Shown piece by piece: positions 15,637 through 33,389 of a stretch of 64,000 nucleotides of DNA. Under the pieces are notes generated by a model. The model was not told where the DNA came from and searched no databases. It saw only the letters and a program-made list of their open reading frames with translations. Both the position numbers and the translations under genes were made by a program. Each line of letters begins with the position of its first letter. Positions within the stretch are counted from its first letter, which is position 1. Source of the DNA: Adhaeretor mobilis (lineage in GTDB: Bacteria; Planctomycetota; Planctomycetia; Pirellulales; Lacipirellulaceae); NCBI RefSeq assembly GCF_007741515.1, contig NZ_CP036263.1:3023178-3087177 (forward strand), read 5' to 3'.

Positions 15637-16139
15637 TGCTGCACCTCGTTCGATTTTTCATTGCTGGTGCAATCAGGCCCAATAACGTTAAACACTAATG
15701 TAGGTGTTTTCTTGCGAGTGATACTGGCCGCAATCTCATAACGCAGCTGCCCATGCCGAACTGCCAATTGCTGTTCGATTGTGTCGCGATCAAAACCCTC
15801 GGGATCACAGTCTGCATAGAGAGTCACTAGTAGCCGGGATGCGTCCGGTGCAGGCACAACGCCAGACACGCGGAGTCCTCGGAGAACGTCGTCACTAATC
15901 TCGCCCGACAATACTTGGTCGAGAGTTTCCGCCACCTGGCGGCAAAGTTGCTTAGTCTTACGATCATCTTTCTTGTGGATACGACTTGCTTTGAAGAACT
16001 CACGAGGGTCGGTACCATCGTCTTCGTGGATTTCACCACAATGCGCAAGCATCTGCTCACGCGTACGCTTATCAAGCGGCATGTTTGTCTCGCTGATTAG
16101 AAATGTGGCTGCGCAACGATTGCGCAGACAGACTGACAA
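15633..16139 (-). CDS. RbfA-like (ribosome-binding factor A family) protein with N-terminal extension; overlaps the rtcB paralog by 4 nt
   Basis: pattern QLCRQVAETLDQVLSGEISDDVLRG.RVSGVVPAPDASRLLVTLYADCD...AVRHGQLRYEIAASITRKKTPTLVFNV parallels RbfA ([41 protein letters not shown]...[22 protein letters not shown]); true start may be an internal Met. Confidence 0.45.
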   Translation of the reverse strand: MSVCLRNRCAATFLISETNMPLDKRTREQMLAHCGEIHEDDGTDPREFFKASRIHKKDDRKTKQLCRQVAETLDQVLSGEISDDVLRGLRVSGVVPAPDASRLLVTLYADCDPEGFDRDTIEQQLAVRHGQLRYEIAASITRKKTPTLVFNVIGPDCTSNEKSNEVQQ

Positions 16140-16436
16140 AGAAGAATCAGTAGTGAGCGAGAGCCTGGCCTAGCTGGGACCAGTCGAGCGTCCGAGATGA
16201 CGCGTAGAGGTCCTCAGCAAGAGCACAAGCTCTGAGGCACAGGGATAGGTAGTATCGATTGCACGGTAGAGTCTCCTATGTGACGACCGGTATGCGCTTG
16301 CCGTCGTGATAGTTGCAAGTCACCGGAACTCTGCTGGCAGTGACATGGGACGATTCATTAGACCCACTTGAAGGCTGAAGGTTCACCATCTCCTTAAATA
16401 GCGAGATTTTCGTAAAGAGCGATTGACGACCCACAC

Positions 16437-16461
16437 GATAGTGTATAGGTTACACTAACGG
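16437..16461. promoter_or_regulatory. candidate NrtR operator: palindrome TAGTGTA-taggt-TACACTA, 16 nt upstream of the pncB start
   Basis: perfect 7-bp inverted repeat; related half-sites TTAGTGTA and ACACTAAG recur upstream of nrtR. Confidence 0.4.
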
Positions 16462-16476
16462 AAGGGAGTAGCTGAC

Positions 16477-17955
16477 ATGCTTGATGAACTCTACCGACCG
16501 CCATTGGCCCTGTTAACCGATCTCTATCAGCTGACGATGGCCTATGGCTATTGGAAATTAGGCCGCGCCGAAGAGGAGGCTGTCTTTCACCTGTTTTTCC
16601 GTAAACCGCCGTTTGAGGGAGGTTATGCGGTAGCCGCTGGTCTAGGGCCAGCGCTGGAGTATTTGCAAGCCTATCGGTTTAGCGAGTCTGACATCGAGTA
16701 TCTCGGTACGCTTACTGGTAACGATGGCGAGCCACTTTTTGAGCCTGAGTTTCTCGGCTACTTAGCAGATCTTCGGCTAACGGTAGACGTCGATGCTATG
16801 CCTGAGGGAACGGTAGCATTTGGGCAGGAGCCGCTGCTTCGTGTAAAGGGGCCAATCCTTCAGTGTCAGCTGCTAGAAACGCCGCTGCTGAATATCATCA
16901 ATTTCCAAACGCTCATAGCGACGAAGGCTTCGCGAATCAGCACTGCGGCTGCTGGTGAACCGATCCTCGAATTCGGTTTGCGACGTGCCCAAGGCATCGA
17001 TGGAGCGCTGGCAGCCAGCCGAGCGGCTTATGTCGGCGGATGTGCAGCAACATCAAACGTTCTCGCCGGGAAGTTGTACGGCATTCCAGTGAAGGGAACC
17101 CATGCCCACAGTTGGGTCATGTCGTTCGACACAGAAGTCGATAGCTTTGAGCGTTACGCTGAGGTAATGCCCAATAACTGCGTCTTCCTGGTCGATACGT
17201 ACGACACCCTTGAGGGTGTTCAGCAGGCGGTCGAGGTGGGAAGAAAGTTACGCGAGCGTGGCCACGAAATGGTTGGAATTCGCCTAGATTCAGGAGATCT
17301 TGCCTACCTGAGTATAGAAGCTCGCAAGATTCTTGATGAAGCTGGTTTTCCGGAAGCAGCCATTGTTGCCTCGAATGATCTCGACGAGCATATCATCGAG
17401 AGCCTGAAGAATCAGAGAGCAAAGATCGCTGTCTGGGGAGTGGGCACGAAACTTGTTACGGCTTACGATCAACCCGCTTTGGGAGGTGTCTACAAGCTTG
17501 GAGCGTTACGAGATAACGACGGCAAATGGCATCCCAAGATAAAGCTTTCAGAGCAAGTGATTAAGACTTCGATCCCCGGTACTCTTCAGGTGAGGCGTTA
17601 CGAAGATGCTAACGGCCTCATCGGTGATATGATTTTTGACGAGACAAATGGCATCGATGACCGTGGGATCATTGTTGACGCGAAAGACCCAACGCGTCGC
17701 AAAAAGATCGCAAGCAACGCGAATGCTGTCGACCTACTTCGGCCTGCATTCCGTGCAGGCAAAGTAGTGGCAGAGCCGGAGAGCTTGGAAGTTATTCGCC
17801 AGCGAATGCACGAGAACATCGAGCGACTCCATCCAACGGTCCGTCGTTTTATGCATCCTCACGAGTACCCAGTTGGGCTGGATGTTGGGCTGCACGAACT
17901 GCGAGATGAAATGATACTGCAAGCTAGGCAAGTTCGACTGGAGATGGCCCCATGA
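16477..17955 (+). CDS. pncB: nicotinate phosphoribosyltransferase
   Basis: NAPRTase-family N-terminus [15 protein letters not shown] and overall architecture. Confidence 0.85.
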
Positions 17956-19928
17956 AGCTAATCCGCGTGGCTGCAGCCGCACTGAATCAAACGCCGCTTG
18001 ATTGGGACAACAATACGTCGAACATCCGAGCTGTGATTCACACAGCCCGCTTGCGCGGAGTCAGTGTACTTTGTCTGCCAGAGCTAAGCATTACTGGCTA
18101 TGGCTGTGAGGACGCTTTTTTCTCTCACGCCGTTCAGCAGTCAGCTCTAGATGTGCTGCAAGAGATTGCGCCACTTACGACGGGTTTGGCTGTCGCCGTT
18201 GGGCTGCCGCTGCTGCACGCCGGTGCTCTCTATAACACCTCTGCGCTCTTGGTCGATGGTCAGCTGAAGGGCTTCGCTGCGAAACAGCGACTTGCAGGCG
18301 ATGGCTTGCATTACGAACCTCGTTGGTTCAAAGCGTGGCCGGCAGATACCGTTGCCTCGATTGCTATCGACGGTGAGAAGTATGCAATCGGTGACCTGCT
18401 CTTTGATGTAGGCGGAATCCGAATCGGCTTTGAGATTTGCGAGGACGCTTGGGTTGCTGAGCGCCCTGCCAAAGACCATGCCAAGCTGGCTGCGGACATC
18501 ATTTTGAACCCTAGTGCTAGCCATTTTGCGTTCGACAAAGCGGCGGTTCGCCAGCGTCTAGTAATCGAAGCATCGCGTGCTTTCGGGGTCACTTATGTTT
18601 ACAGCAATCTGATTGGCAACGAGGCGGGGCGCATCATTTACGACGGGCAGACGCTTATCGGTACCCATGGCGAATTAGTTGCTCGCGGTTCACGATTTAG
18701 CTTTCAGCCGGTGACCGTTTGCGACGCGGTTGTTGATATCGATGCCACGAGAATGCGTCGAGTTCAGTCTAGCAGCTATGAGCCGCAAATCGACGTTGAT
18801 CAAAATCGCGTAGTTGACGTGAGCTATACGCTCGAAGCTGCAGACCCAGAGGCTGCCAACTTAGATTCAAACACTTGGGAACAAAGTAATTGCTTGCAAG
18901 AGGAAGAGTTCACGCGGGCGATCGCTCTAGGGCTCTACGATTATCTTCGCAAAAGCCACTCCAACGGTTTTGTGGTCTCGCTCAGTGGAGGCGCTGATTC
19001 AGCTGCTGTGACGTGCCTAGTGGCTCTTATGGTGAAGATTGGCTGCGAAGAAGTAGGGATAGGGGCCTTTGCAGGCAACACTGCATTGAGCAATCAGAAT
19101 GCACCGACACAGGAAGCACTAGTCCATCAATGGCTCACCACAGTCTACCAGGCAACCAAGAACAGCTCTAAGACAACAAAGAATGCTGCACGCATTCTAG
19201 CTGAGGCGGTCTCCGCACACCACTACGAACTCGACGTTGAGGACATTACGGAGAGCTATACGAAGAAGATTGAAGAGGCCTTGAGCCGCGAGCTTACTTG
19301 GGAGCAAGACGACATCACACTGCAGAATATTCAAGCTCGGGTCCGTGGACCTGGTGCCTGGATGCTAGCCAACATCAACAATGCGTTGTTGCTCGCCACT
19401 AGCAATCGCTCGGAAGCTGCCGTTGGCTATGCGACAATGGACGGAGATACTTGTGGAGGCATTAGCCCGATAGCTGGGATTGATAAAGCTTTTCTGCGCA
19501 AGTGGCTGCAGTGGGTAGAACGTGAAGGACCTCAAGGCATTGGGCCCATCCCTGAACTAGCTGCAGTCAATCAGTTGCAACCGACTGCCGAGTTGCGGCC
19601 GCAGGAAGCGGGCCAGATAGATGAAGAGGATCTCATGCCTTACGAACTGCTGGATGCGATTGAGCATCAGGCAATTGGAGAGAAACGATCCCCACAGGAG
19701 GTCCTCACGGCAGTTTCTGCCGAGTTCGACCAATACACTAGTGAGCAACTGGTAGTTTGGGTTCGCAGGTTTTTCCAGCTCTGGAGTCGAAATCAATGGA
19801 AACGGGAGCGGTACGCCCCTTCGTTTCATGTCGACGACAAGAATCTGGATCCAAAGACATGGTGCCGGTTCCCTATTCTCTCGGGCGGTTTCCAACGCGA
19901 GCTAGCAAATCTGGAATCGCCCAAATAG
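17952..19928 (+). CDS. nadE: glutamine-dependent NAD+ synthetase (CN-hydrolase + NAD synthetase domains)
   Basis: N-terminal nitrilase-like domain, C-terminal PP-loop SGGADSAAV; start overlaps the pncB stop (ATGA). Confidence 0.85.
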
Positions 19929-19980
19929 CTCGATCCTGCTGTACTTTCCCAAATATTAGCGGAGTAATCGTCAAAGCCCT

Positions 19981-20033
19981 TGACTTAGTGTAACTATCAC
20001 ACCATAATAGTGTCGATAGGACACTAAGTGACA
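19981..20033. promoter_or_regulatory. candidate autoregulatory NrtR half-sites upstream of nrtR
   Basis: TGACTTAGTGT (19981-19991) and ACACTAAGTGACA (20021-20033) inverted relative to each other; inner imperfect palindrome GTGTAACTATCACAC. Confidence 0.3.
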
Positions 20034-20055: not shown

Positions 20056-20745
20056 ATGGCCCATGCCTACGAATTCGCCCGCCCTGCCTTGACGGTTGAT
20101 ATCGTCGTGTTCGCACTCGACGAGGAAGACCTGCAAGTCATGCTCATTGAGCGTGACCTAAAGCCCTTCGAGGGCCAATGGGCATTGCCGGGCGGCTTTG
20201 TGAGAGTTGACGAAACTTTGGAAGAGGCAGCGCGACGTGAACTGGAAGAAGAGACGGGCCTAAAGGACATCTATTTGGAGCAACTTTACACGTTCGGCGA
20301 CATCAAGCGTGATCCGAGAGAACGTGTTGTCACCGTGACCTATTACGCCCTGGTCAACTTAGAGGGACATGACGTACAAGCCAGTACAGATGCTCGCAAT
20401 GCAGCTTGGTTTTCTATGAATGATCTGCCCAAGCTGGCGTTTGATCATAAAACGATTCTTCGTGCGGCCCACGAGCGATTAAGGGGCAAGGTGAGATACC
20501 AGCCTATTGGATTCGAACTATTGCCAGAGAAGTTTACTCTCCGACAAATGCAGCATCTCTACGAGGTAATTCTCGATCGCGAATTGGACAAGCGGAACTT
20601 TCGCAAGAAGGTGCTCGGGATGGAGATTGTGAAAGAGACCAAAGAGATTGAGAAGGACGTCGCACACCGAGCAGCACGTCTCTACCGGTTCGATAAACGC
20701 AGATACGACAAACTTACCAAACAAGGTTTCAACTTCGAGATTTAG
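20056..20745 (+). CDS. nrtR: NrtR-like Nudix-related transcriptional regulator (Nudix domain + C-terminal winged HTH)
   Basis: Nudix box [24 protein letters not shown]; C-terminal [14 protein letters not shown]...NFRKKV; sits beside pncB-nadE as in described NrtR regulons. Confidence 0.65.
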
Positions 20746-20760
20746 TCCCCTAGAAGAATC

Positions 20761-21813
20761 ATGAACCGATATCCGCATATCCTTGGATGCCTACTCGGCA
20801 CAGCCTTAGGCGACGCCGTTGGGCTTAGGCGTGAGGGTCTTTCTCGAAGGCGCGCGGAGAGGATGTACGGTGGTACCCCTCTGGGACCAGACTTTATTCT
20901 TGGTCTCGGCTTTTGCAGTGATGATGCCGAACATACGCAAATGGTTGGCCGAGCGCTCGTGTTGTCAGCTGGGCATGTAGCAAAATTCGAGAAGGAGCTT
21001 AGTCGTCAGCTGAAGCGTTGGCTAGTAGCACTTCCCGCTGGCATTGGTTTGGCAACGTTGAGAGCTTGTATCAAGTTGCTATTGGGTTTTGGTCCAAAGC
21101 GGAGTGGCGTATTCAGTGCGGGCAACGGTCCCGCAATGCGTACGGCTCTAATCGGCGTCTGGGCAGAGTCTGACGACCAGCTCAAGGAGTTGGTTCGAAT
21201 CTGCACAAGGCTGACACACACCGACCCAAGAGCTGAAGAAGGTGCGTTACTTGTAGCCAAAGCAGCTCGACTGACAGCCAGCGGGCAATATGTCGAACCG
21301 ACTGAGTTCCTCAGAGATGCAGTAGGCGAGGTCGAGGGCGAAGAACTTCGTGAAAGCTTACAGATGGCAATTAAGGCGTTGGCTGCTAACAAGGCCCCGA
21401 AAGAGTTTGCTGATTCGCTTGGGTGGTCAGAAGGCGTGACTGGATATGTCAATCATTCGGTACCTGCTGCTTTGTACTGTTGGGCAGACTCGCCGAACGA
21501 CTTTCGACGCTGCGTGGAAAACGCCGTCCTCTTGGGCGGCGATACGGACAGTGTTGCAGCAATTGCTGGAGCCATTTGTGGAGCTAACGTTGGTAGCGAA
21601 AACTTGCCACCTGATTGGCTCATTAGCCTAGCTGAGTGGCCTCGCAGCAAAAGCTGGATGCGACAATTGGCTGAAGCGTTGAGCAATGAGGCCAAAGTAT
21701 GCGAGCTACCAAAGCCACCTGGAATGCGCTGGTTGGCGACCGTCCCAAGAAACTTCGTTTTTGCTGCAATCGTGTTGGTCATCGGGTTTAGGCGATTACT
21801 TCCACCGTATTAG
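20761..21813 (+). CDS. ADP-ribosylglycohydrolase family protein (DraG/ARH-like)
   Basis: ILGCLLGTALGDAVGL and GGDTDSVAAIAGAICGA binuclear-metal motifs. Confidence 0.75.
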   Translation: MNRYPHILGCLLGTALGDAVGLRREGLSRRRAERMYGGTPLGPDFILGLGFCSDDAEHTQMVGRALVLSAGHVAKFEKELSRQLKRWLVALPAGIGLATLRACIKLLLGFGPKRSGVFSAGNGPAMRTALIGVWAESDDQLKELVRICTRLTHTDPRAEEGALLVAKAARLTASGQYVEPTEFLRDAVGEVEGEELRESLQMAIKALAANKAPKEFADSLGWSEGVTGYVNHSVPAALYCWADSPNDFRRCVENAVLLGGDTDSVAAIAGAICGANVGSENLPPDWLISLAEWPRSKSWMRQLAEALSNEAKVCELPKPPGMRWLATVPRNFVFAAIVLVIGFRRLLPPY

Positions 21814-21823
21814 AGATTTGAGC

Positions 21824-22285
21824 ATGAATTACCTTGAAGCCCCTACTGAATATGATGCCGATGGCCGTGCGGTGTTCTTGGCTGGTGGAATCACGGATGC
21901 AGAAAACTGGCAATCAGATCTTATTGAATCACTGCAAGGTGTTGATGCGACTGTCCTCAATCCGAGGCGTAAAGAATTTCCTATGAATGACGAATCTGCT
22001 GGATTGCAGCAGATCGAATGGGAGCATCGGCACCTAGCAAAAGCAGACTTGATTGCTTTTTGGTTCCCTCCGCAAACCTTGTGTCCGATAGCGTTGTTTG
22101 AGCTGGGAGCTTGCTGTGCATCAAGCGTCCCACTGGTTGTCGGGACTTCTCCGGAGTATGCGAGAAGATTCGATGTCGTCACGCAACTTCGATTACTACG
22201 ACCAGAGGTGAATGTGCATGACAGCCTGGAAGAGCTGCAGCTTGCCATCATGGAGCACCCCTTGTTCGAGGAGTCTTTGCGATGA
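21824..22285 (+). CDS. nucleoside 2-deoxyribosyltransferase-like Rossmann protein (start reassigned to MNYLEAP)
   Basis: AVFLAGGI ... IEWEHRHLAKADLIAFWFPP ... ALFELGACCAS...PLVVG resembles the NDT-like/DUF4062-type fold; the ORF-track start at 21686 overlaps the ARH gene. Confidence 0.4.
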   Translation: MNYLEAPTEYDADGRAVFLAGGITDAENWQSDLIESLQGVDATVLNPRRKEFPMNDESAGLQQIEWEHRHLAKADLIAFWFPPQTLCPIALFELGACCASSVPLVVGTSPEYARRFDVVTQLRLLRPEVNVHDSLEELQLAIMEHPLFEESLR

Positions 22286-22878
22286 AAGCCTTGCTACTGA
22301 TCGACATCCAAAATGATTTCCTGCCGGGTGGTGCGCTAGCAGTAGCCAATGGCAACGAAGTTGTGCCAATCGCAAATAGATTAATGGCCGATTACGACCT
22401 CGTCGTAGCGACGCAGGACTGGCATCCGGAAGGCCATGGCTCATTTGCAAGCCAGCACCCAGATCACGATGTTGGCGAGATTGTGACCCTAAATGGACTC
22501 GATCAAATCCTATGGCCCGATCACTGTGTCCAAGGAACTTCTGGAGCTGAATTTGCAAGAGAACTGAACACAGCAGGCATAGACCATGTCATTCAAAAAG
22601 GAACCGACAGAAACATCGATAGCTACAGCGGATTCTTCGATAACGCTCGTCGTAAGGCGACGGGTATGGAGACCTACCTACGTGAGCAGCAGGTTGATGA
22701 AGTCCATGTTGTGGGCCTCGCAACGGACTACTGCGTGAAGTTTACCGCACTGGATGCAGTCGACCTAGGATTCAAGACATCGATTCTGATGGATGGTGTA
22801 CGAGGAGTAGATTTGAACGAAGGTGACTGTCAAAGAGCAATAGATGAAATGAAGGCGGCTGGAATAGCCGTCGCATGA
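22282..22878 (+). CDS. pncA: nicotinamidase (isochorismatase family)
   Basis: LIDIQNDF (Asp), DWHPEGHGSF metal site, catalytic Cys in ATDYCVKFT. Confidence 0.7.
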   Translation: MKALLLIDIQNDFLPGGALAVANGNEVVPIANRLMADYDLVVATQDWHPEGHGSFASQHPDHDVGEIVTLNGLDQILWPDHCVQGTSGAEFARELNTAGIDHVIQKGTDRNIDSYSGFFDNARRKATGMETYLREQQVDEVHVVGLATDYCVKFTALDAVDLGFKTSILMDGVRGVDLNEGDCQRAIDEMKAAGIAVA

Positions 22879-22887
22879 AAGAGCAGA

Positions 22888-23742
22888 ATGATGAATCGAA
22901 ATAATCGAAAACAAATAGGCAGCCAGACTGTAGAGATCGTAGACCGAGGATGGTACGAGCTTGACAGTCATGGTCGTATTGATATTGCTGCACCGGTGAA
23001 AAACTGCCTGAGCGATACTCGGCTTTACACTCCACATGAATCGGACGACTTGCTGAATAATGAGTACTCCCGTGCATATGAAACCGTGATTGAAGTCGAG
23101 AATGAGACCACCCTGTCGGCTGCAACACGTCTCATCGTTGAGCAGAAACGTCCTAACACTTTGTGTTTGAACTTCGCCTCTGCAAAAAACCCAGGAGGTG
23201 GATTCTTGGGTGGGAGCCAGGCGCAAGAAGAGAGCCTTGCACGTTCGTCCGCACTCTACGCATCTTTGTTGACGCAAAATGTGTACTACGAGACCAATCG
23301 GGCTTGTCGTACCGCGTTATACACTGATCTCATGATCCTCAGCCCAGACGTTCCAGTATTTCGGGCTGATGAGGGCAGCTTATTGCCCGATCCCTATTTG
23401 TTGAGCATTTTGACTTCTCCAGCTGTGAATGCCGGAGCAGTGAAGAAGAATGAGCAGGACAAAGAACCGATGATCATTCCGACTATGACTCAACGTATCG
23501 CAAAGGTGCTCACGATAGCGGCTGAGCATGGCTACGAGCATCTCATTTTTGGGGCATGGGGATGTGGTGTATTTCGAAACGATCCAGGTGAGATCGCAAA
23601 GCTATTCGCGGAGGCGCTACTCGATGGTGGACAATTCTGCAATCGATTCGCCAGTGTGACCTTTGCCGTTTTGGACGGAACCGATGGTGAGCGAATTATC
23701 AGACCGTTCAGACAAGAGTTCGTGAAAGGAGCGTTGAATTGA
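22888..23742 (+). CDS. bacterial-type poly(ADP-ribose) glycohydrolase-like protein (DUF2263/TIGR02452 macro fold)
   Basis: PARG signature NPGGGFLGGSQAQEESLARSS (GGG-X6-8-QEE). Confidence 0.7.
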   Translation: MMNRNNRKQIGSQTVEIVDRGWYELDSHGRIDIAAPVKNCLSDTRLYTPHESDDLLNNEYSRAYETVIEVENETTLSAATRLIVEQKRPNTLCLNFASAKNPGGGFLGGSQAQEESLARSSALYASLLTQNVYYETNRACRTALYTDLMILSPDVPVFRADEGSLLPDPYLLSILTSPAVNAGAVKKNEQDKEPMIIPTMTQRIAKVLTIAAEHGYEHLIFGAWGCGVFRNDPGEIAKLFAEALLDGGQFCNRFASVTFAVLDGTDGERIIRPFRQEFVKGALN

Positions 23743-24716
23743 ATAACACAGCAGTTGATCAACCGTCGACTATTGTCACTGCGGGCATTGTCGGACAAGC
23801 CGTTGGTGATGCTCTCGGCGTTCCAGTTGAATTTCAATCCCGTGAAAGCCTCGATCGAAATCCAGTGATTGGAATGCGTTCAGGTGGTTCGCATGATCAG
23901 CCAGCCGCCACCTGGTCGGACGACTCATCGCTCGTATTCTGCCTTGCTGACAGTATTTGTGAGACAGGCGTTAACTATAAGGACCAGGCGGCTCGTTTTA
24001 TTGGTTGGTTGCTCCGTGCTGAATGGACGCCGCACGGAGATATATTCGATGTTGGAAACGCGACACGTGAAGCCATCCTCCGACTTGATGCGGGCGTAGA
24101 ACCAACTCAAGCTGGACCTACAGGCGAATTCAGTTGCGGTAATGGCTCACTAATGCGAATCCTCCCGATTGCCCTCTACCTCGCTTATGCCAATCGAAAT
24201 GAGCGAATTGAAATAGCTATGAATTGCAGTCGGCTAACGCACGGTCACATCAGGTGCCAACTAGCTTGTGCACTGTTTGTAGAGATTGCAGCAGGCTTGG
24301 CGAGAGGAGGCAGTATCGCCACAAGTTTAGCAGTTGCGCAAGCAACACTTCAGCCGCTAGTTGACGCACAAGAGGAAGCAGAAGTACTGCACTTTTCTAG
24401 GTTGCTTTCCCCGGAGATCGGAGACCTCGACCGATCTGACATCTCTCGTAGCGGATACGTCATACATTGTTTGGAGTCCAGTTTATGGTGCAGCCTAAAT
24501 GCTGGCAGTTATTCCGAAGGTGTCTTGGCCGCCGTAAATCTTGGTGAAGACACGGATACAACTGGCGCAGTAGCTGGTGCACTTCTTAGTCTCATTTACG
24601 GTGTTGATGGGATTCCAAACGATTGGAAGGAATCCCTAGCCCGCAAGAAGGATGTGTGTGAGCTGTCGCACCGCTTCGAAATTGCTTGTCGGAAACGATG
24701 GGAGTTAGACAAATGA
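23739..24716 (+). CDS. ADP-ribosylglycohydrolase family protein (second paralog)
   Basis: VGQAVGDALGVPVEF and GEDTDTTGAVAGALLS. Confidence 0.75.
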   Translation: MNNTAVDQPSTIVTAGIVGQAVGDALGVPVEFQSRESLDRNPVIGMRSGGSHDQPAATWSDDSSLVFCLADSICETGVNYKDQAARFIGWLLRAEWTPHGDIFDVGNATREAILRLDAGVEPTQAGPTGEFSCGNGSLMRILPIALYLAYANRNERIEIAMNCSRLTHGHIRCQLACALFVEIAAGLARGGSIATSLAVAQATLQPLVDAQEEAEVLHFSRLLSPEIGDLDRSDISRSGYVIHCLESSLWCSLNAGSYSEGVLAAVNLGEDTDTTGAVAGALLSLIYGVDGIPNDWKESLARKKDVCELSHRFEIACRKRWELDK

Positions 24717-26185
24717 TCAATCTCAAAACAGTACGCCGAGGCGACCGCGTCGCCGTTTGGAATGCAAAAGGTGAAGTCCGCTTTGTCGACGGACCGAAAC
24801 GCCTGTTGCTATTTCGCGAACGAATCGAATCCTTGCGACGCTACCGAGCCGAACCACATCAGTATCTCGTCGTTCAGTTCCTGGACGGTCGTACCGAGCA
24901 CGTGCGAGGGCCAGCTGAACTTTGGTTAAGCCCCGTCGAGCACGATTCGATAGCCGTGCAAGAAGCAGAGGCGATTGACGCCAACCAGGCTGTGCTGGTT
25001 TACCAACGACAGGATGACGAAAGTGTAAGCCGTCGTGTGCTGTATGGGCCTGCCCAGTACATGCCGGAGTCCAATGAGTGGTTGCAGCGGTTAGATCCAC
25101 TGCGCAGACACAACGCTGAGGCGCACCAGTATCTGGTAGTTCGGTTTCTCGATGGTCGTACCGAGCATCTGCGGGGCCCAGCCGATATTTGGTTTCATCC
25201 AGACGAGCATGAATCCATTGCCGTGGAAGATGCCACGCCAGTCGATGCGCATCAGGCACTGGTTATCTACCGTCGTGAGGCAGACGAACACATCAGCCGC
25301 CGAGTCCTTCATGGCCCTGCTCAGTACGTGCCAGAGGCAAATGAATGGCTTCACCAGTTTCGTTGGCATGGTGCTGACCCCAACGACCCTAAGCACAAAG
25401 TGCCCAGGGCGCTGCGGTTCACCAAACTGCGTGTGATCCCTGACCAAATGTACTTCGATGTGGAGGATGTACGGACAGCAGATGATGCATTGCTGGTCGT
25501 ACAGCTCATGGTCTTCTTTGAGCTCGAAGACATTGAGAAAATGCTTGATCAGACACACGACCCGATTGCCGACTTCATCAATGCACTAGCTGCCGACGTC
25601 ATTGATTTTGCCGCTAGTCGGTCATTTGAGGAATTTAAGGAAGCGACCAACAGCCTCAACGAACAGAACGAGTACACCAATCTAGTTAGTCGCGCTGAAC
25701 GCATCGGGTACCGAGTTAATAAGGTCGTCTATCGAGGCTACGTTGCTTCCAGCAAATTGCAGTCGATGCACGACGATGCAATTGAGAAGCGAACAGCCTT
25801 AAAGCTCGAAGCCGAAACTGAGCGACAAGCACAGGAACTCGCTGATTTGAAGTTGGAGCGTGAGGCCGAGAGAGAAGAAACGCGACGTGGAATGCAACGT
25901 GAGCAAGCTGAGCATGAGCAACGATTGCTACAAGTCCAACATGATGGGGATAGCGGACGCTTGGATGCGGACCAAAAACAGGAGATTGCCCATAAGCGTG
26001 AAATGCAATTGGCGGATGTGGAGCACCTGCGTGGAGAAAACGAAGAACGCCTGAGGTTCCTACGTGAGATTCAGGGGCTACAAGTTGATCTTACCCGCTA
26101 TTTAGTCGCTCAGTACCAGCACCCGGATCGGCTGATCCGAGTAGATGGCACCAACGGCAGTCAACTACACCTACACGACAATTGA
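24686..26185 (+). CDS. SPFH/band-7-like protein with N-terminal tandem ~88-aa repeats and C-terminal coiled coil
   Basis: 2.3 copies of HQYLVVxFLDGRTEHxRGPAxxW...RRVLxGPAQYxPExNEWL; then VEDVRTADDALLVVQLMVFFELEDIEK band-7-like core and an E/R-rich coiled coil. Confidence 0.5.
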   Translation: MSETMGVRQMINLKTVRRGDRVAVWNAKGEVRFVDGPKRLLLFRERIESLRRYRAEPHQYLVVQFLDGRTEHVRGPAELWLSPVEHDSIAVQEAEAIDANQAVLVYQRQDDESVSRRVLYGPAQYMPESNEWLQRLDPLRRHNAEAHQYLVVRFLDGRTEHLRGPADIWFHPDEHESIAVEDATPVDAHQALVIYRREADEHISRRVLHGPAQYVPEANEWLHQFRWHGADPNDPKHKVPRALRFTKLRVIPDQMYFDVEDVRTADDALLVVQLMVFFELEDIEKMLDQTHDPIADFINALAADVIDFAASRSFEEFKEATNSLNEQNEYTNLVSRAERIGYRVNKVVYRGYVASSKLQSMHDDAIEKRTALKLEAETERQAQELADLKLEREAEREETRRGMQREQAEHEQRLLQVQHDGDSGRLDADQKQEIAHKREMQLADVEHLRGENEERLRFLREIQGLQVDLTRYLVAQYQHPDRLIRVDGTNGSQLHLHDN

Positions 26186-26197
26186 TGCGAGGTAGAG

Positions 26198-26743
26198 ATG
26201 GATGAAAAAAGCGAACTAACGACCGTATACGAAGGTCGACATCTGTCGATGGTCCGGAGGGGGCATTGGGAATTCGCAACGCGTAATACCAAGAAGCCCG
26301 CTGTTGGAATTGTCGCCATCACAGACCAAATGAATGTTGTTTTGGTTGAACAGTTTCGTCCACCGGTTGGGCGTAAGGTGGTAGAACTCCCTGCCGGGCT
26401 GGCTGGTGACATTCCAGGCTCGGAGAATGAAGCCCTTGTCGAAGCAGCTAAACGGGAATTGCTGGAAGAGTCCGGATATACAGCAAGTGAATGGACGGAC
26501 CTTGGAAGTGGTTACTCTTCCCCAGGGCTCACGGACGAGTCGATCGTGCTATTCCTGGCCAGGGGCTTAGAAAAGACTGGGCCAGGTGGCGGCGATGAGA
26601 GCGAAGACATTATTGTCCATGAAGTTCCATGGACGGGAGTGGTAGCGTGGCTGCAGCGGCGAGAAGCAAAGGCCGATCTAAAACTTCTTGCTGGATTATA
26701 TGCCGCCTCGCATGCACTAGACAGCACGAAAGGAGCAAACTAA
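26198..26743 (+). CDS. Nudix hydrolase (ADP-ribose pyrophosphatase-like)
   Basis: Nudix box ELPAGLAGDIPGSENEALVEAAKRELLEESG. Confidence 0.75.
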   Translation: MDEKSELTTVYEGRHLSMVRRGHWEFATRNTKKPAVGIVAITDQMNVVLVEQFRPPVGRKVVELPAGLAGDIPGSENEALVEAAKRELLEESGYTASEWTDLGSGYSSPGLTDESIVLFLARGLEKTGPGGGDESEDIIVHEVPWTGVVAWLQRREAKADLKLLAGLYAASHALDSTKGAN

Positions 26744-27367
26744 GTGCCACTACCTATAGAACTTTGGTTAATTCATCCTAAACGCGAAGCCACGCAAGCG
26801 TTTGCATGGCGTTTCGATGGTTTACCGTCTGTGCGCTGCGTCCAAACCAGTTATGAAAATTTGGAGCCGCACGACTGCTTCGTAACCGCAGCTAATTGCT
26901 ACGGGATTATGAATGCCGGTATTGACGCTGCCGTAATCGGAGTCCATGGCGTTGAGCTATGCACTAGAATTCAGAACCGCATTCTTGATGAGTACCTTGG
27001 TGAACAGCCGGTCGGGACTGCGATCATCGAGCCAACGCGAAGTGCTCGCAACCCCTATGTGTGCCATGCTCCAACAATGAGGATCCCTGGGTCGATATGC
27101 GGCACGGACAACGTCTACCGCGCGACGTTCGCCGCCCTGACTTCGATATATCGATACAACGTCTCGCACGATCACCCAATCCATTCGGTTGCTCTACCTG
27201 CAATGGGGTGTGGCTTCGGCGGAATGGACTTCTCTGAGTCTGCGAGACAAATGGCAACTGCGTATACACACTACTTGAGTCCTCCCCATCACCTTGACTG
27301 GGACAATGTGGTGGGCCGTGAGAAAGCGATTTGCTACGACGGTGATACGAGAATTATTCAGACCTAA
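26744..27367 (+). CDS. macro-domain protein (ADP-ribose/Appr-1-p processing)
   Basis: VTAANCYGIMNAGIDAAV and ALPAMGCGFGG motifs of the macro fold. Confidence 0.6.
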   Translation: MPLPIELWLIHPKREATQAFAWRFDGLPSVRCVQTSYENLEPHDCFVTAANCYGIMNAGIDAAVIGVHGVELCTRIQNRILDEYLGEQPVGTAIIEPTRSARNPYVCHAPTMRIPGSICGTDNVYRATFAALTSIYRYNVSHDHPIHSVALPAMGCGFGGMDFSESARQMATAYTHYLSPPHHLDWDNVVGREKAICYDGDTRIIQT

Positions 27368-27924
27368 TGATAACTATGAACGAACAGAAATTGAAAAAAA
27401 TAAGTAAGAGCCTTAGCTATGTGCTACGGCACCGGCCCGACAGCGTAGGGCTAGAATTGGGCGACGGCGGCTGGGTAGCCGTGGAAGATCTATTGGCCGC
27501 TTTCCAGCGATCTGGCAAGACGCTGTCACGAGAGTTGCTCGATGTGGTAGTTGCTGAGAACGACAAACAACGATTCGAGTTTTCAGAGGACAACACCCAA
27601 ATTCGAGCACGGCAAGGACATTCGGCTGAGGTTGATCTCGGCTATGAGCCGGCCACCCCACCAGATGTGCTGTACCATGGCACGGCTACAAAAAACTTAG
27701 AATCGATTCGTCAGAAGGGGCTGATCAAAGCCAATCGACATCATGTGCACATGTCTACGAACAAGGAGACAATGCTCGATGTTGCGAAGAGGCATGGGAA
27801 ACCTATTTTATTGGCAGTCGATGCCAAGCAAATGCTCGCCGATGGGCATGAGTTCTTCGTCACTGGAAACAGTGTCTGGCTGACAGATCATGTACCGCCG
27901 GAGTACCTCTCGCAGGAGGACTGA
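27367..27924 (+). CDS. kptA: RNA 2-prime-phosphotransferase Tpt1/KptA
   Basis: LSYVLRHRP, RFEFS, IRARQGHS, LYHGT, RHHVHMS, GNSVWL: the KptA/Tpt1 signature residues. Confidence 0.8.
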   Translation: MITMNEQKLKKISKSLSYVLRHRPDSVGLELGDGGWVAVEDLLAAFQRSGKTLSRELLDVVVAENDKQRFEFSEDNTQIRARQGHSAEVDLGYEPATPPDVLYHGTATKNLESIRQKGLIKANRHHVHMSTNKETMLDVAKRHGKPILLAVDAKQMLADGHEFFVTGNSVWLTDHVPPEYLSQED

Positions 27925-27949: not shown

Positions 27950-28828
27950 TTACGGCTGTTTACGGCACCTACGAGCAGAGCGTCGACGGGTGAGAATTCC
28001 ATCTCTCCGCGCAGCCACTACTGCATAGAGCGAATCAGGATCTGAAAAACTGTGTTTTTCGGCCAATACCTGTCTTCTCGCTTCAGACGCCGCTAATCGC
28101 CGCTCTTTGTAGTCGCTGAATATCTGCACTTCTCCGTCGGGCCAGCGATAGCAGTTTCTGTCGGCCATGTAATAGTAGACCATGCCGTAGCTAGCTGGGT
28201 CCATCTGAGCAATGGTCTGAGCTCTGAGTCTAAGGATCTCAGGAGGGGCAGAGTAGCAGACAAAACCGCCGCATCGGCACATATTTTCTTCAAGCCATAA
28301 CCGCTTGTTCTCTTGATAATGTACCCAGTCCTGTTCAGTGTTCTCTATGGCCGAATTATATGGGCCGCTTTCCCGTTCTCGCTCTAGCGCCGCATCCAAG
28401 CCAAATGTGTGCCATCGCAGGGTGCATTGAGAAGGCCCCAGATACTTCAGTTGGCCGCGTAAGGTCGTGAGGCTTTTTGCGTCAATCTTTGTCAGGTTGC
28501 TGTTTGTGATGAGAATCGGATCAGACGGCTCAGCACCAAACGGAGTAGGCTTAATGTGTTCGCCATGAATAAGAATGGCCGTTCCTGAAATCCGCTGAAA
28601 GGATAGCCCCCACAAGAGTCGAGCAAGGAGTTTTGCTCCGTACTGGTCACTTACTATGTGCCAAGTGTCGTGGAAGTAATTCGTGCTGTAGGCGACTTCG
28701 CTATGTGGGCGTAGCGTGACCAATCGATAGGAAGTTCCGCGCAGCTTTAGCACTCGCAGATGAAGCTTCATGCGATCGCATGCGCTTCTGCGTTTGCCGT
28801 ATCGTTGGGTTTTGCGGTTTGCTGACAT
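27950..28828 (-). CDS. hypothetical protein (292 aa, Cys/Trp/Tyr-rich)
   Basis: ORF only. Confidence 0.35.
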   Translation of the reverse strand: MSANRKTQRYGKRRSACDRMKLHLRVLKLRGTSYRLVTLRPHSEVAYSTNYFHDTWHIVSDQYGAKLLARLLWGLSFQRISGTAILIHGEHIKPTPFGAEPSDPILITNSNLTKIDAKSLTTLRGQLKYLGPSQCTLRWHTFGLDAALERERESGPYNSAIENTEQDWVHYQENKRLWLEENMCRCGGFVCYSAPPEILRLRAQTIAQMDPASYGMVYYYMADRNCYRWPDGEVQIFSDYKERRLAASEARRQVLAEKHSFSDPDSLYAVVAARRDGILTRRRSARRCRKQP

Positions 28829-28869
28829 GGGCGCTATGACACCCGAGACCGCGAGATGGTTCGGCCATT

Positions 28870-29634
28870 TCAGTTGCCAACTCGCAGCTTTACCAGCAAT
28901 TCATTCAACTTAGCCTTCCCGGTTGCCTGTTCCGGAAGAGTTGATTTCTCCATCGCCACTTCTAGATCGGCAACTAGCCGCTCGTACTCTTGCTCGTGGA
29001 ACTCTAGGTCAGCTGCATCGAGACGGCCTTTCTCTGGCCCAGCCAGTTTGCGTTCAACTAACTCACCGATGTAAGGCAACTTCGCAGTTTCGTTGAGGGT
29101 CAGCAAATTTGCTTCGACTTCACCGGTTTGCATCAGGTGGATACCCGTCAACAGCACGCGGTAGACGTACAGCAGCGGCTTCACCTTGGGCGGATCTTCC
29201 TTGCGGAATAGCTTCCACTGCGTTGCGGCAAAGCCCAAATAATGGTGAGCGTGGAATTTGGTGATGCAGTCCTTGGCAATTGCCTTCAGTTCCTCGTGCT
29301 CAGGTGTTGTCTGCACAACGAGCGGCGAGAGCAATTGCTCCAACACGTACCCGTTCTTCTTCAGCATCAGGCCAAAGAATTTCTTGGCATCGTGGGTAAC
29401 CAAGTCCATCTCCAACCCATCGTGGATGCATTCCTTCTCAACGGTCTCTTCGCCAGGGTCGAGACCGACCACTTGCTCCAGCGGCAACAGGTGCACGCCT
29501 CGCAGATCGAAGTCGGAATCTGCGGACGGAAAGCCATACAGGTGGGCACCGCTAATCGTCGCGAAGACGAGTGGGTACGGATGGGCGTCCACGTGCTTTT
29601 GCAGTTTTGCGTAGTCAATGGTTTGTGCGTTCAC
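28870..29634 (-). CDS. pol-beta-superfamily nucleotidyltransferase, PF10127 (RlaP-like)
   Basis: GAHLYGFPSADSDFDLRGVHL (GSxxYG..SDxDxxGV). Confidence 0.6.
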   Translation of the reverse strand: MNAQTIDYAKLQKHVDAHPYPLVFATISGAHLYGFPSADSDFDLRGVHLLPLEQVVGLDPGEETVEKECIHDGLEMDLVTHDAKKFFGLMLKKNGYVLEQLLSPLVVQTTPEHEELKAIAKDCITKFHAHHYLGFAATQWKLFRKEDPPKVKPLLYVYRVLLTGIHLMQTGEVEANLLTLNETAKLPYIGELVERKLAGPEKGRLDAADLEFHEQEYERLVADLEVAMEKSTLPEQATGKAKLNELLVKLRVGN

Positions 29635-30413
29635 TGAAATTCCTCCGTATCCTCTGCAGTTTGGCCATTGATGCTCGCAAGCCGTCTGACTTCCTCTAGA
29701 TTCGTTCCAGCAGGCAACACGCCTAGCTTTCCACTTAGCGTGATGAAGCGAATACTACCTGCATGAGGTCGAGTCAGCTCTAAGAAGTTGACACCACTTG
29801 TCGACTTGAGTTCGTGAATCGAAAGGTCTCTTGGCTCTGCCCATTCAATATCTGAGTTTGTTATTTCTAAGACCAAGATAGGGTCAGACGTGTCTGGTAT
29901 GACGGATACAGAGATTGTTTGATCGCCAGGAAACAATGTGTCTTCACCGACCAGGACTACATAGCTCGTGAGTGTAGTTCCGTCCTCCAAGCCACAGGGG
30001 CACGCAAATCTGCTCTCAGATACCGGCTGGAACAGCCGTTGATTTCTTGAACCATTCCATGGATCTGTCATGTCATATGCCTCGTAGATGCCATCCCCGT
30101 CAATTCCCAAGGAATCCAAGTGCGGAAGAATTAGAACCCGCCAACTATGAGCAGCATTGCCATCTGGCCCCTGGAGGAACGGAGGGGGCAATGAGCCGTA
30201 AACCGAGTCGTACTCCAGCAGTGCATGACGTAGCTTAAACAAACTCGCATGACACAGCGTTTCATGGACAGCATGTCGTGCGTTTGAGACTAGGAAGGCC
30301 AAGACTCCACAAATAATCACTACGATCCCACCTGCCGAAATCAACGTCGACTTGGAAAATCGCTCCTCCTCAGGAACGGGACTGTCTAAAGGTTCGGTTT
30401 TCTCATCGTTCAC
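29631..30413 (-). CDS. membrane-anchored hypothetical protein, possibly Planctomycete DUF1559-like
   Basis: single TM helix LISAGGIVVIICGVLAFLVS; C-terminal HAGSIRFITLSGKLG loosely resembles the H-X9-DG tail; overlaps both neighbours by 4 nt. Confidence 0.35.
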   Translation of the reverse strand: MNDEKTEPLDSPVPEEERFSKSTLISAGGIVVIICGVLAFLVSNARHAVHETLCHASLFKLRHALLEYDSVYGSLPPPFLQGPDGNAAHSWRVLILPHLDSLGIDGDGIYEAYDMTDPWNGSRNQRLFQPVSESRFACPCGLEDGTTLTSYVVLVGEDTLFPGDQTISVSVIPDTSDPILVLEITNSDIEWAEPRDLSIHELKSTSGVNFLELTRPHAGSIRFITLSGKLGVLPAGTNLEEVRRLASINGQTAEDTEEFQ

Positions 30414-31360
30414 GGCAGCTCCTCCGCAATCGCCGCTCGACGTGCTCGCACCAAGAACTCGTTCGCTCGCTCGTAATCTGGTCGCTCCGGCAAATCAGTC
30501 TCTTCCAACGCTTTGTCGAACTCCTTGTGCAGCTCCTTCCGCCACGCCTCGATGTCGCCCCAAGGTATCTTTTCGTTCTTGATAGCAAACAGCCGCTCGC
30601 GGTGCTGGCCAACATCGACTGGCACAAACCCCTCGCGGAGCACGTGGATGCCTGACAGCAACAGTCGAATGAGGTGCATCACGTGTTTGGGTTTGATCTT
30701 GCCCTGGTTACGAAGGTCGGCCTGCATCCGCTTGAACTGCGACATCACGTAGCCATTGTACGTCTGGTAGACCAGCCGCGAGAGGAATGCATCCCGCATG
30801 TCGAGCAGCTCCTGGGCGAGCGGCGAAGCGAACTCGACCAGTGGCGTGTAGAGGCACTCCAGGATGTTCGGGTTCCCCTTCAAAGCCATAATGAGGAACT
30901 TTTGCAGCTCCCAGCACGCTTCCTCAGTCTCGTCGTTCTCCAATTGCTCGGGCACACCGTAGAGCGACCAATGCAGGTCTGCGGGTGGCAGATAAATGCC
31001 ACGTCGGTCAGTGTCCGACTCCTCGGTATCGAGGCCAAACGCCCGCGAGCCGACGACGCACCGATAGATCACGCGGTCGAACAGTCCATGTGTAGAAAGC
31101 GTCTTGTTCGCGTCGTTGATAGCACCTTGCTTGTACTCGGCCAGCAACATGAGATTGTTATGGTGCAGTGCCGACTCGAACCCGTCGGGGAAACGGACGC
31201 GGTACGAATGCTGCCGATCACGTGGCGAACGGACCACCACCCCCACGGCACCCGCTGGGTGCACAGCCTCCCCGTTGGACCCTTGCACCTGCTTGAGCGC
31301 AACGACCTGCGTTCCCACCGAGTAGATGAGGTTCGGACTGTTGTGGACGCGTGATTTCAT
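30410..31360 (-). CDS. second PF10127-like nucleotidyltransferase (paralog; start trimmed to MKSRV)
   Basis: GSRAFGLDTEESDTDRRGIYL; same architecture as 28870..29634. Confidence 0.6.
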   Translation of the reverse strand: MKSRVHNSPNLIYSVGTQVVALKQVQGSNGEAVHPAGAVGVVVRSPRDRQHSYRVRFPDGFESALHHNNLMLLAEYKQGAINDANKTLSTHGLFDRVIYRCVVGSRAFGLDTEESDTDRRGIYLPPADLHWSLYGVPEQLENDETEEACWELQKFLIMALKGNPNILECLYTPLVEFASPLAQELLDMRDAFLSRLVYQTYNGYVMSQFKRMQADLRNQGKIKPKHVMHLIRLLLSGIHVLREGFVPVDVGQHRERLFAIKNEKIPWGDIEAWRKELHKEFDKALEETDLPERPDYERANEFLVRARRAAIAEELP

Positions 31361-31448
31361 ATTCGTTGATAGCTTGATTCTGCAGGAGATTATACTGCAA
31401 ATTGAAAAACCGGAGGCCAAGATCACTCCCGGCCTCCGGCGTTCACTA

Positions 31449-33110: not shown

Positions 33111-33232
33111 GTGGTCTTGCCTCGCCTTCGTAATAATCCAATCACGGAACACATCACACCGACCACTAACGTAGGGTGCAATGCGCCGCTGGCCCAGCGA
33201 CGACAAATCCTTGCTTAAAAGTTCTTGCTAAG

Positions 33233-33303: not shown

Positions 33304-33312
33304 TTTCTTAAG

Positions 33313-33384: not shown

Positions 33385-33389
33385 ATAAG

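Follow-up and report, generated by a model that had tools for sequence, protein, structure and literature searches.

A 64,000-nt stretch from Adhaeretor mobilis (contig NZ_CP036263.1, positions 3,023,178 to 3,087,177; hereafter the window, numbered from its first letter) carries a cluster in which genes for the salvage of nicotinamide adenine dinucleotide (NAD) are physically linked to a multi-enzyme set for processing ADP-ribose. This coupling, claimed in an earlier sequence-only reading, is upheld here, and the two sets are apparently co-regulated, with operator candidates 5′ of both units of the cluster. Using Pfam and NCBIfam, we identified twelve genes between 16477 and 27924, all on the + strand:

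16477-17955, +: pncB, nicotinate phosphoribosyltransferase (NAPRTase_N, NAPRTase and NAPRTase_C domains)
17952-19928, +: nadE, glutamine-dependent NAD synthetase (CN_hydrolase and NAD_synthase domains)
20056-20745, +: nrtR, Nudix-winged-helix repressor (NUDIX and NrtR_WHD)
20761-21813, +: ADP-ribosylglycohydrolase 1 (ARH1; PF03747, E 2e-56)
21824-22285, +: nucleoside 2-deoxyribosyltransferase-like (NDT-like) protein (PF15891, E 1.5e-20)
22282-22878, +: pncA, nicotinamidase (265 bits with NCBIfam equivalog NF008623, whose cut-off is 174)
22888-23742, +: bacterial-type poly(ADP-ribose) glycohydrolase (PARG; PF10021, formerly DUF2263, and TIGR02452)
23739-24716, +: ADP-ribosylglycohydrolase 2 (ARH2; PF03747, E 2e-74)
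24713-26185, +: 490-aa miniature homolog of major vault protein (MVPL), with five predicted vault-like repeats, an SPFH shoulder, a long helix for the cap and a conserved C-terminus
26198-26743, +: Nudix hydrolase of the ADP-ribose / ADP-sugar pyrophosphatase type (PF00293)
26744-27367, +: macro-domain protein, Ymx7/Poa1-like, candidate ADP-ribose-1′′-phosphatase (PF01661, E 8e-13)
27367-27924, +: kptA/tpt1, NAD-dependent 2′-phosphotransferase (PF01885; equivalog NF002014, 257 bits against 239)

The ten genes from 20056 to 27924 had been named from the letters alone, with pncB-nadE placed directly upstream; both the genes and their coordinates proved real, and the catalytic motifs are kept. 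The true start of the NDT-like gene is probably 21824 and that of MVPL is the ATG at 24713, and kptA homologs begin at the ATG corresponding to 27376. Junctions between cluster genes have either 0-15 nt of spacing or overlaps of the form ATGA (as at pncB/nadE), TTGA or TAATG, which is operon-style packing, as for translationally coupled genes. From the end of nadE to the start of nrtR there is a gap of 127 nt. We propose two transcription units, pncB-nadE and nrtR-arh1-ndt-pncA-parg-arh2-mvpL-nudix-macro-kptA. The word island, which had been applied to the locus, is wrong for what is a vertically conserved regulon of the Planctomycetes-Verrucomicrobia-Chlamydiae (PVC) bacteria with base composition (GC content) flat over the whole window. 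A mobile or phage island is ruled out by the flat GC content, the ordinary chromosomal flanks and the lack of a PADLOC system.

The salvage and de-ADP-ribosylating enzymes retain their signatures. PncA has the context of the D8, K106 and C151 triad and a DWHP metal site, and passes the isochorismatase-fold equivalog cut-off. PARG matches PF10021 (E 1e-48) and TIGR02452 (287 bits against 50), and it matches Thermomonospora curvata PARG (3SIG, E 1e-64), with whose catalytic loop the stretch GGGFLGGSQAQEE (residues 103-115) aligns; the GGG-X6-8-QEE signature expected by the sequence-only reading is thus present, as GGG-X7-QEE. Aligned with the solved ARHs MJ1187 and Lmo0067, ARH1 shows GDAVG (17-21), SDD (53-55) and GGDTDS (259-264), and ARH2 shows GDALG (23-27), SDD (60-62) and GEDTDT (269-274), corresponding to the GDAxG, S/TDD and GxDTDS/T residues established as the metal ligands of ARHs. 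Neither protein is specifically ARH3-type, as had been supposed. ARH2 is closest to Listeria Lmo0067 (8ZA7, E 1e-60), followed by the Thermus thermophilus ARH, Tri1 and DraG, and reaches ARH3 at only 1e-9 to 1e-10; ARH1 is far from all solved ARHs, with MJ1187, ARH3 and DraG about equally distant. ARH1 also carries a hydrophobic C-terminal tail (21733-21813) with the consensus RN.xF..(V/I)VL.(H/I)GFRRLLPPY, recognisable in most of 30 homologs across phyla; the tail might anchor the enzyme in a membrane or serve as a docking peptide, for instance to a vault-like cage.

KptA scores 171 bits against 26 for PF01885, and its alignment with Runella slithyformis Tpt1 (7KW8, E 1.5e-52) is gap-free. 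Its R21, H22, R69 and R124 fall on Runella positions 16, 17, 64 and 119, the Arg-His-Arg-Arg catalytic tetrad, and a review (PMC8120803) gives RH-R-R as required by Tpt1/KptA enzymes. The stand-alone Nudix protein has E-X7-REUXEEXGU at residues 78-94, with weak NCBIfam matches to NudE and YffH/AdpP that lie under their cut-offs. Inactivity of the enzymes, a possibility the sequence-only reading had raised against itself, finds no support: the motifs of KptA, PARG and both ARHs and the Nudix boxes of NrtR and the stand-alone hydrolase are intact, and PncA lies above its equivalog cut-off.

For the macro protein, the AlphaFold2 model (predicted local distance difference test, pLDDT, 93) gave as its best Foldseek match the yeast ADP-ribose-1′′-phosphatase Ymx7 (1NJR, E 7e-11, template modelling score 0.66), with MacroD2, DarG and YmdB about 1000-fold weaker at about 1e-7. 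In the alignment with DarG, the Lys of the DarG FPTK stretch, presumably catalytic, faces the Met of APTM in the window protein. In yeast, the by-product of Tpt1 is passed from Cpd1 to the ADP-ribose-1′′-phosphatase Poa1/Ymx7 and on, as ADP-ribose, to the Nudix enzyme Ysa1. The last three genes of the operon, which abut or overlap, encode an ADP-ribose-type Nudix enzyme, a Ymx7-like macro protein and KptA. Taken together, the Ymx7 match, the abutting Nudix gene and the overlapping kptA suggest that the macro protein disposes of the KptA by-product, in a line with the Nudix enzyme that would handle ADP-ribose-cyclic-phosphate. The predicted structure therefore points toward small-molecule disposal and away from the removal of ADP-ribose from RNA, one of the roles the sequence-only reading had offered for the protein. 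The operon differs from the yeast pathway in having neither a 2H cyclic phosphodiesterase nor a yeast-type tRNA ligase that makes 2′-phosphate junctions, and its macro member is restricted to few relatives: the window and the loci L082 and L084 of the scan described below.

Candidate NrtR operators and conservation of the cluster

The first protein of the longer unit combines an N-terminal Nudix domain (PF00293, E 7.5e-24), with a complete Nudix box at residues 47-69, and a C-terminal NrtR winged helix (PF21906, E 2e-28). When we scanned the window for the palindrome TAGTGT-N7-ACACTA, allowing up to two mismatches, three sites were returned, all immediately upstream of pncB or nrtR. These and the promoter-like site at nrtR are:

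16439-16457: NrtR operator candidate upstream of pncB, TAGTGTATAGGTTACACTA, an exact TAGTGT-N7-ACACTA, 20 nt 5′ of the pncB ATG
19986-20004 (one mismatch) and 20008-20026 (exact): two NrtR operator candidates upstream of nrtR, 30-70 nt 5′ of its start
19980-20008, +: promoter-like site TTGACT-17-CATAAT (promoter scan, 10/12 matches)

The TTGACT-17-CATAAT site is the best sigma-70-like site of the region, and both nrtR operator candidates overlap it.

To place the cluster among relatives, we ran a locus scan anchored on MVPL, taking one genome per species, and compared the open reading frames of each locus with the window proteins by BLASTP. The 78 loci obtained come from Planctomycetota, Verrucomicrobiota, a few Sericytochromatia, Thermoanaerobaculia, Armatimonadota, Victivallales and others; frequencies were calculated from the 51 loci with full flanks. 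In related loci (1.31 Mb), the exact palindrome occurs 57 times, compared to about 0.05 copies that we estimate from base composition. All copies but one (56/57) lie 12-170 nt upstream of PncB (23), NrtR (28), MVPL (3) or PncA (2) genes, at 19-58 nt from pncB (23 loci) and 12-45 nt from nrtR (28 loci), and they include loci whose vault-like gene has no adjoining nrtR.

The palindrome contains the GT-N7-AC core reported for NrtR boxes by Rodionov et al. (PMC2330246). In that paper, control of pncA, pncB and nadE by NrtR is established, ADP-ribose frees other NrtRs from DNA, and Blastopirellula marina is entered in the regulon table as '#pncB-nrtR-pncA; #nadE'. The cluster shares with those regulons the Nudix and winged-helix repressor, the controlled PncA-PncB-NadE salvage route and a 19-21 bp palindromic box with the GT-N7-AC core before pncB, nrtR and pncA. 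It differs in that the nrtR unit is longer by up to eight genes (two ARHs and the NDT-like, PARG, MVPL, Nudix, macro and KptA genes), none of which the available text of PMC2330246 gives for its regulon. Because of the position and conservation of the operator motif, the whole cluster is most likely one regulon of NrtR, a putative ADP-ribose-sensing repressor.

Same-strand clustering recurs in most of the 51 loci (L001/L007, L003/L017, L004, L006, L011, L023 and L028 are examples), and it is far beyond chance. A scattering of the genes in related genomes, with no conserved linkage, had been named as an outcome that would count against the set; instead, dozens of Planctomycetota and Verrucomicrobiota genomes carry the same genes together on a single strand. 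NrtR is present in 94% of the 51 loci, ARH in 73%, PncA in 71%, the Nudix hydrolase in 59%, KptA in 57%, PncB/NadE in 51%, PARG in 29%, NADAR in 20% and the NDT-like protein in 6% (3/51 MVPL-anchored loci; it is also found in L082, L084 and L087). KptA either comes last in the operon or lies between pncA and MVPL.

The closest relatives found were uncultured Pirellulales (L082, 94% MVPL identity) and the cultured Posidoniimonas and Aeoliella. L082 has two KptA paralogs in one operon (8905-9450 and 13628-14179), 53% and 86% identical to the window KptA, and both keep the tetrad, which is invariant in the five operon KptAs that we aligned, both paralog types included. More distant loci range from near-complete sets to a minimal pair. 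L001 (72% MVPL identity) reads PncB-NrtR-ARH-PncA-PARG-ARH-MVPL-Nudix-ARH-KptA and L003 (59%) reads PncB-Prs-NadE-NrtR-NADAR-79aa-ARH-PncA-PARG-PARG_cat_C-MVPL-Nudix-KptA; L002, from Algisphaera agarilytica, holds NrtR-MVPL only. Other culturable bacteria that have MVPL are Poriferisphaera sp. WC338, Haloferula rosea, Cerasicoccus spp. and Oceaniferula spumae. Looking from macro and KptA anchors in three cultured strains, we also reached NrtR operons, and these are without MVPL. Aeoliella mucimassa has PncB-NrtR-PncA-NADAR-KptA and Anatilimnocola floriformis has NrtR-NDT-PncA-NADAR-PARG-Nudix-KptA. In Posidoniimonas corsicana, ARH2 is only 134 aa long (L084 9036-9440), the Nudix gene directly adjoins it and MVPL is missing, which looks like a single deletion.

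The vault-like protein

The sequence-only reading had called the 490-aa product of 24713-26185 an SPFH protein. An SPFH domain is indeed present in the predicted structure, but it sits within an architecture resembling that in major vault protein (MVP), a homology that reading missed. No Pfam family, Band_7 included, matches the protein at threshold. In the family alignment, a unit of about 88 residues is duplicated and the central domain hardly varies. The AlphaFold monomer model (pLDDT 78) shows beta-repeats over residues 1-215, then an SPFH-type domain and a helix about 120 residues long, a predicted order of repeats, SPFH shoulder and cap helix as in MVP. When this model was compared with the Protein Data Bank (PDB) by Foldseek, twelve MVP chains ranked first (E 1e-16 to 2.5e-12, about 550 aligned columns), followed by stomatin, flotillin and HflK/C at 1e-7 or weaker.

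The link to MVP comes from fold comparison and hhalign only. The Pfam Vault_3 model gives the window protein 15.8 bits (E 0.016), under the 28.8-bit cut-off, and matches 11 of 24 MVPL relatives with a best E of 3.9e-7. Aligned by hhalign with human MVP 349-852 (a sequence checked against PDB chains), the family reaches a probability of 76% and an E of 2e-5 over the repeats and shoulder. Searches of PDB sequences with phmmer and hmmsearch, using the profile and a shoulder fragment, found no MVP or SPFH chain.

The shoulder of human MVP has a basic inter-subunit pocket that binds NAD, ADP and ADP-ribose, native brain vaults contain ADP-ribose and TEP1 is an NADase (PMC12280208; bioRxiv 10.64898/2026.05.01.722283). 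In our hhalign alignment, the invariant P243-D244 of MVPL falls on human P520-D521 and the invariant K229 on R511, which are three listed pocket residues; we consider this correspondence, read from aligned sequences, suggestive only.

About 1000 MVPL homologs were found, almost all in Planctomycetota. At 50% identity the family falls into 1696 clusters, and its proteins are 250-810 aa long, a spread that suggests variable repeat numbers; MVPL has no strongly hydrophobic segment. The SPFH protein encoded at 31449-32699 is not a paralog, since BLASTP between the two finds nothing.

Compared to the eukaryotic vault, an MVP cage with PARP4, TEP1 and vault RNA, MVPL shares the predicted architecture of repeats, shoulder and cap helix and a genetic tie to an enzyme of the ADP-ribosyltransferase (ART) superfamily and to NAD/ADP-ribose chemistry. 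It is smaller (490 aa and five repeats versus about 890 aa and nine), is known from sequence and a monomer model, and has marginal sequence similarity, as the hhalign and Vault_3 scores indicate. MVP homologs had already been reported from bacteria, in Myxococcales, Cytophagales and Oscillatoriales (bioRxiv 10.1101/872010), but these form a separate group that is much closer to eukaryotic MVP than MVPL is. In the literature we searched, no report of MVPL under NrtR control was found, nor any paper tying NrtR to KptA or to a vault-like protein, and an earlier description of this architecture is possible.

These comparisons raise a speculative proposal that we hold as possible and no firmer. MVPL may be a cage-forming bacterial mini-vault whose expression is controlled by NrtR as ADP-ribose sensor and whose shoulder would bind ADP-ribose or NAD. 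It would give order to ADP-ribose metabolism or buffer it, and might recruit ARH1 via the conserved tail of that enzyme. The NAD and ADP-ribose links of the eukaryotic vault (PARP4, the TEP1 NADase and shoulder-bound ADP-ribose) would then be inherited from an ancient bacterial ADP-ribose-response module, or have converged on one, and KptA would be an NrtR-regulated enzyme of NAD(P) and ADP-ribose metabolism, not a relic of RNA splicing.

Proposed mechanism, rival explanations and flanking genes

We favour, as rather probable, the reading that the operon is an ADP-ribose-inducible programme for clearing ADP-ribose and rebuilding NAD, organised as an NrtR regulon of two units. We consider the regulatory and enzymatic identities well supported; the substrates of the enzymes and the role of MVPL we infer. 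At rest, NrtR bound to TAGTGT-N7-ACACTA would repress both units. When NAD is consumed by ADP-ribosyltransferases, NADases or KptA itself, free ADP-ribose would rise and NrtR, by analogy with other members of its family, would leave the DNA. ARH1, ARH2 and PARG would then strip ADP-ribose from macromolecules, probably with different bond specificities (protein Arg/Ser, ribose 2′-OH or phosphate ends), the Nudix enzyme would cleave the free ADP-ribose, and PncA, PncB and NadE would return the released nicotinamide to NAD. KptA would take its 2′-phosphate from RNA or NADP(H), both known Tpt1 substrates, and the Nudix enzyme, together with the Ymx7-like macro protein whose gene is translationally coupled, would dispose of its product. 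In the least certain step, MVPL would form an oligomeric cage of the SPFH type, binding ADP-ribose or NAD, scaffolding the enzymes, or both.

Independent work on KptA is in keeping with such a setting. Tpt1 takes NADP(H) as 2′-phosphate donor and has NADase activity, and a role in NADP(H)/ADP-ribose metabolism was proposed in 2023, when no regulation of Tpt1 expression was known (PMC10622864). Review PMC8120803, citing de Souza & Aravind 2012, places KptA in NAD/ADP-ribose operons that contain macro, ARH, NADAR and sirtuin genes but none related to RNA. The present cluster likewise has KptA among ADP-ribose-processing domains with no RNA gene as conserved partner and, compared with those operons as that review describes them, differs in having no sirtuin. 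Deinococcus radiodurans also carries a bacterial-type PARG in an operon, DRB0100-DRB0099-DRB0098 (ligase, PARG and phosphatase-kinase), whose association with nucleic-acid end-processing led to the proposal that it clears ADP-ribose-blocked ends (PMC11833690). That operon is without NAD salvage, NrtR, KptA and an SPFH/MVP protein, and its ligase and kinase are missing here.

Several observations weigh against the favoured reading or parts of it. NrtR scores E 8e-58 and 196 bits with the NCBIfam model NF050029, under its 400-bit equivalog cut-off. The frequency table is anchored on MVPL and hence biased. PADLOC 2.0 detected no known defence system, with weak generic matches only (Nudix to PDC-S07, and macro to 32 residues of DarG). 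The operon has no cyclic phosphodiesterase that would connect ADP-ribose-cyclic-phosphate with the candidate macro phosphatase. In the hhalign comparison, the other pocket residues of human MVP are unmatched in the MVPL family. Lastly, Posidoniimonas corsicana, Aeoliella mucimassa and Anatilimnocola floriformis have otherwise equivalent operons with no MVPL. The pathway can therefore do without it, and as an indispensable core of the system it is ruled out.

The de-ADP-ribosylating enzymes, here termed erasers, turn over between loci. The number of erasers per locus runs from zero to four, the window having four, and ARH, PARG, PARG_cat_C, NADAR and macro replace one another even between close relatives. 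L082 has KptA and a 158-aa protein of unknown function at the PARG-ARH2 place and ends its operon with macro-ARH-KptA; L083 (87% MVPL identity) has only PncB-NrtR-PncA-MVPL-Nudix-ARH, and L004 (83%) has PncA-PARG-MVPL-Nudix-KptA. Within the favoured reading, these slot changes suggest that selection is exerted mostly by ADP-ribosylating toxins of foreign origin or by phage enzymes and not by one fixed endogenous writer. The strongest rival holds that the operon is mainly dedicated immunity against the ADP-ribosyltransferases of phages or competitors and against NAD depletion, with NAD salvage and KptA secondary, similar to the ADP-ribosylglycohydrolase (ARG)-centred systems of Iyer, Burroughs, Anantharaman and Aravind (2022, PMC9503650). 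That work describes Nudix-helix-turn-helix regulators, also in planctomycetes, and predicts counter-measures to viral ADP-ribosylation.

The resemblance is considerable. Both have an ADP-ribosylglycohydrolase core, a Nudix-helix-turn-helix negative regulator (NrtR, the first gene of the unit here), optional macro or NADAR members, planctomycete occurrence and modules that vary between close relatives, the last being a hallmark of conflict systems according to PMC9503650. Several erasers of different chemistry stand under one repressor in our operon, and a bacterial PARG protects from the RNA-ADP-ribosylating toxin RhsP2 (PMC11833690). However, the published systems are defined by having no coupled ART or sirtuin, contrary to the presence of KptA, an ART-superfamily enzyme, in this operon. 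They couple a phosphatase (rhodanese-type or other, in about 55% of systems) and peptide-binding chaperones, whereas the ten operon proteins include no phosphatase domain (rhodanese-phosphatase, calcineurin-like, HD or HAD) and no peptide-binding chaperone domain, with KptA, NAD salvage and the vault-like protein instead. Furthermore, the most constant members (NrtR, PncA and Nudix) are metabolic, no PADLOC model matches, and minimal NrtR-MVPL pairs occur without any eraser. We judge immunity as the dedicated function to be unlikely, though it is the best of the rivals.

The sequence-only reading had proposed an endogenous cycle of reversible RNA ADP-ribosylation, in which KptA caps 5′-phosphorylated ends, the macro, PARG and ARH enzymes uncap them and NAD salvage refuels the cycle. 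The KptA tetrad is intact, and at least one eraser accompanies KptA in 28/29 loci. In vitro, Tpt1/KptA enzymes ADP-ribosylate 5′-phosphate ends, and the modification is reversed by PARG, macro and ARH enzymes of bacteria, which take ADP-ribose off RNA (PMC11833690; PMC8120803). The writer-eraser logic gains no backing from the loci, however. The 28/29 figure is what an eraser background of 86% predicts, and 16/51 loci have at least one eraser without KptA, which argues against the erasers existing to undo KptA products; a dependence of the erasers on KptA gains no support from co-occurrence. In addition, eraser types are swapped freely while KptA stays unchanged, the macro protein is closest to a small-molecule phosphatase, and among the conserved operon members of the 51 loci there is no RNA-binding or RNA-end-processing gene. 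We judge the capping cycle improbable.

The flanks of the window raise another possibility. On the left lies the pair at 14503-16139 (-), divergent from pncB and kept in L082, of a short RtcB (14503-15636; 377 aa, with part of the N-terminal region of the Pfam model missing) and an overlapping gene for a 168-aa protein with a weak RbfA match. On the right, convergent on kptA, the - strand carries a 292-aa protein of unknown function, RlaP, a DUF1559 protein, a second RlaP and an SPFH/Band_7 protein (27950-32699), then 30 tRNA genes in 4.1 kb (33038-37156; ARAGORN, 24 confirmed by Rfam) between the SPFH gene and rtcA. The genes of a classical RtcR-controlled repair unit (37786-45109) continue into this array: RtcA (37786-38886), a 237-aa protein of unknown function (38852-39565), RtcB (39543-41045), two YrlA Y-RNA-like genes (41070-41199 and 41219-41415) and Rsr/Ro60 (41697-43310), each of them on the - strand, with RtcR divergent beyond them (43526-45109, +). 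Several isoacceptors in the tRNA array are duplicated, and it includes the unusual anticodons His-ATG and Ile-TAT. Where the window has the DUF1559 gene, the corresponding block of L082 (14189-20254) has a NIF phosphatase and an additional EF-Tu paralog; tRNAs come after the block.

KptA might therefore be an accessory of RNA repair that clears 2′-phosphates from RNA or tRNA repaired by these neighbours (RtcB, RtcA, RlaP, Ro60/Y-RNA and the tRNA array), with the rest of the operon removing ADP-ribose-cyclic-phosphate and restoring NAD. The operon does lie between the short RtcB and the large repair block in the window, the same flanks are found in L082, tRNAs and an SPFH gene abut pncB in L004, Ro60 follows KptA in L020 and the macro protein resembles the yeast enzyme that acts on the Tpt1 by-product route. 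In archaea, KptA erases 2′-phospho-U47 from tRNA (PMC10622864). Against this, no single RNA-repair gene is a neighbour in more than about 2% of the 51 loci; the flanks, common to L082 and partly to L004, are missing from L083, L001, L003, L086, L087 and nearly all other loci. Neither a yeast-type ligase nor an Ark1-type kinase turned up in the window, and ligation by RtcB leaves no 2′-phosphate product. The NAD/ADP-ribose operons noted in review PMC8120803 likewise carry KptA without RNA-related neighbours. We regard the adjacency to the RNA-repair block as lineage-specific, and an obligatory link, with neighbours of this kind seen in L082, L004 and weakly L020 only, is ruled out; the accessory role is as improbable as the capping cycle.

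Other neighbours were also observed. A five-gene MoxR-type system occupies 6208-14272 (-), with VWA_CoxE, DUF5682, AAA_5 MoxR, a 603-aa protein of unknown function and a SWIM protein. Its DUF5682-VWA end adjoins pncB upstream in Posidoniimonas corsicana (L084 1-1696) and in a Sedimentisphaerales genome (L061 44-2900), so its association with the NrtR regulon recurs. In the Pirellulales loci L001/L007, an 1834-aa helicase (13734-19238, -) with DUF4011, AAA_11/12, MTES_1575 and WGR is convergent on kptA; the WGR domain is otherwise typical of PARPs. Copper and metal resistance genes at 49362-63999 (a P-type ATPase with HMBD/YHS, an outer-membrane efflux protein, a multicopper oxidase, TRASH/YHS proteins and a resistance-nodulation-division pump) are apparently unrelated.

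Implications for KptA, the erasers and vault function

NrtR-pncA/B regulons and the occurrence of KptA in NAD/ADP-ribose operons were known; we view the present cluster as a richly extended NrtR-controlled NAD/ADP-ribose operon in which the vault-like member is unexpected. The role of KptA in bacteria without an RNA ligase that forms 2′-phosphates becomes approachable through its recurrent membership in a regulon with conserved operators for a putative ADP-ribose sensor, and its position beside nicotinamide salvage and ADP-ribose disposal supplies a physiological and regulatory context that was previously missing. The operon also gives a native context to bacterial PARG and ARH enzymes, and the swapping of erasers between close relatives fits an arms race with ADP-ribosylating toxins. 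As MVPL is under apparent ADP-ribose control and often paired with NrtR alone, it offers a simple genetic system in which to test nucleotide binding as an ancestral vault function. If the mini-vault reading is true, vault function would be testable in culturable PVC bacteria.

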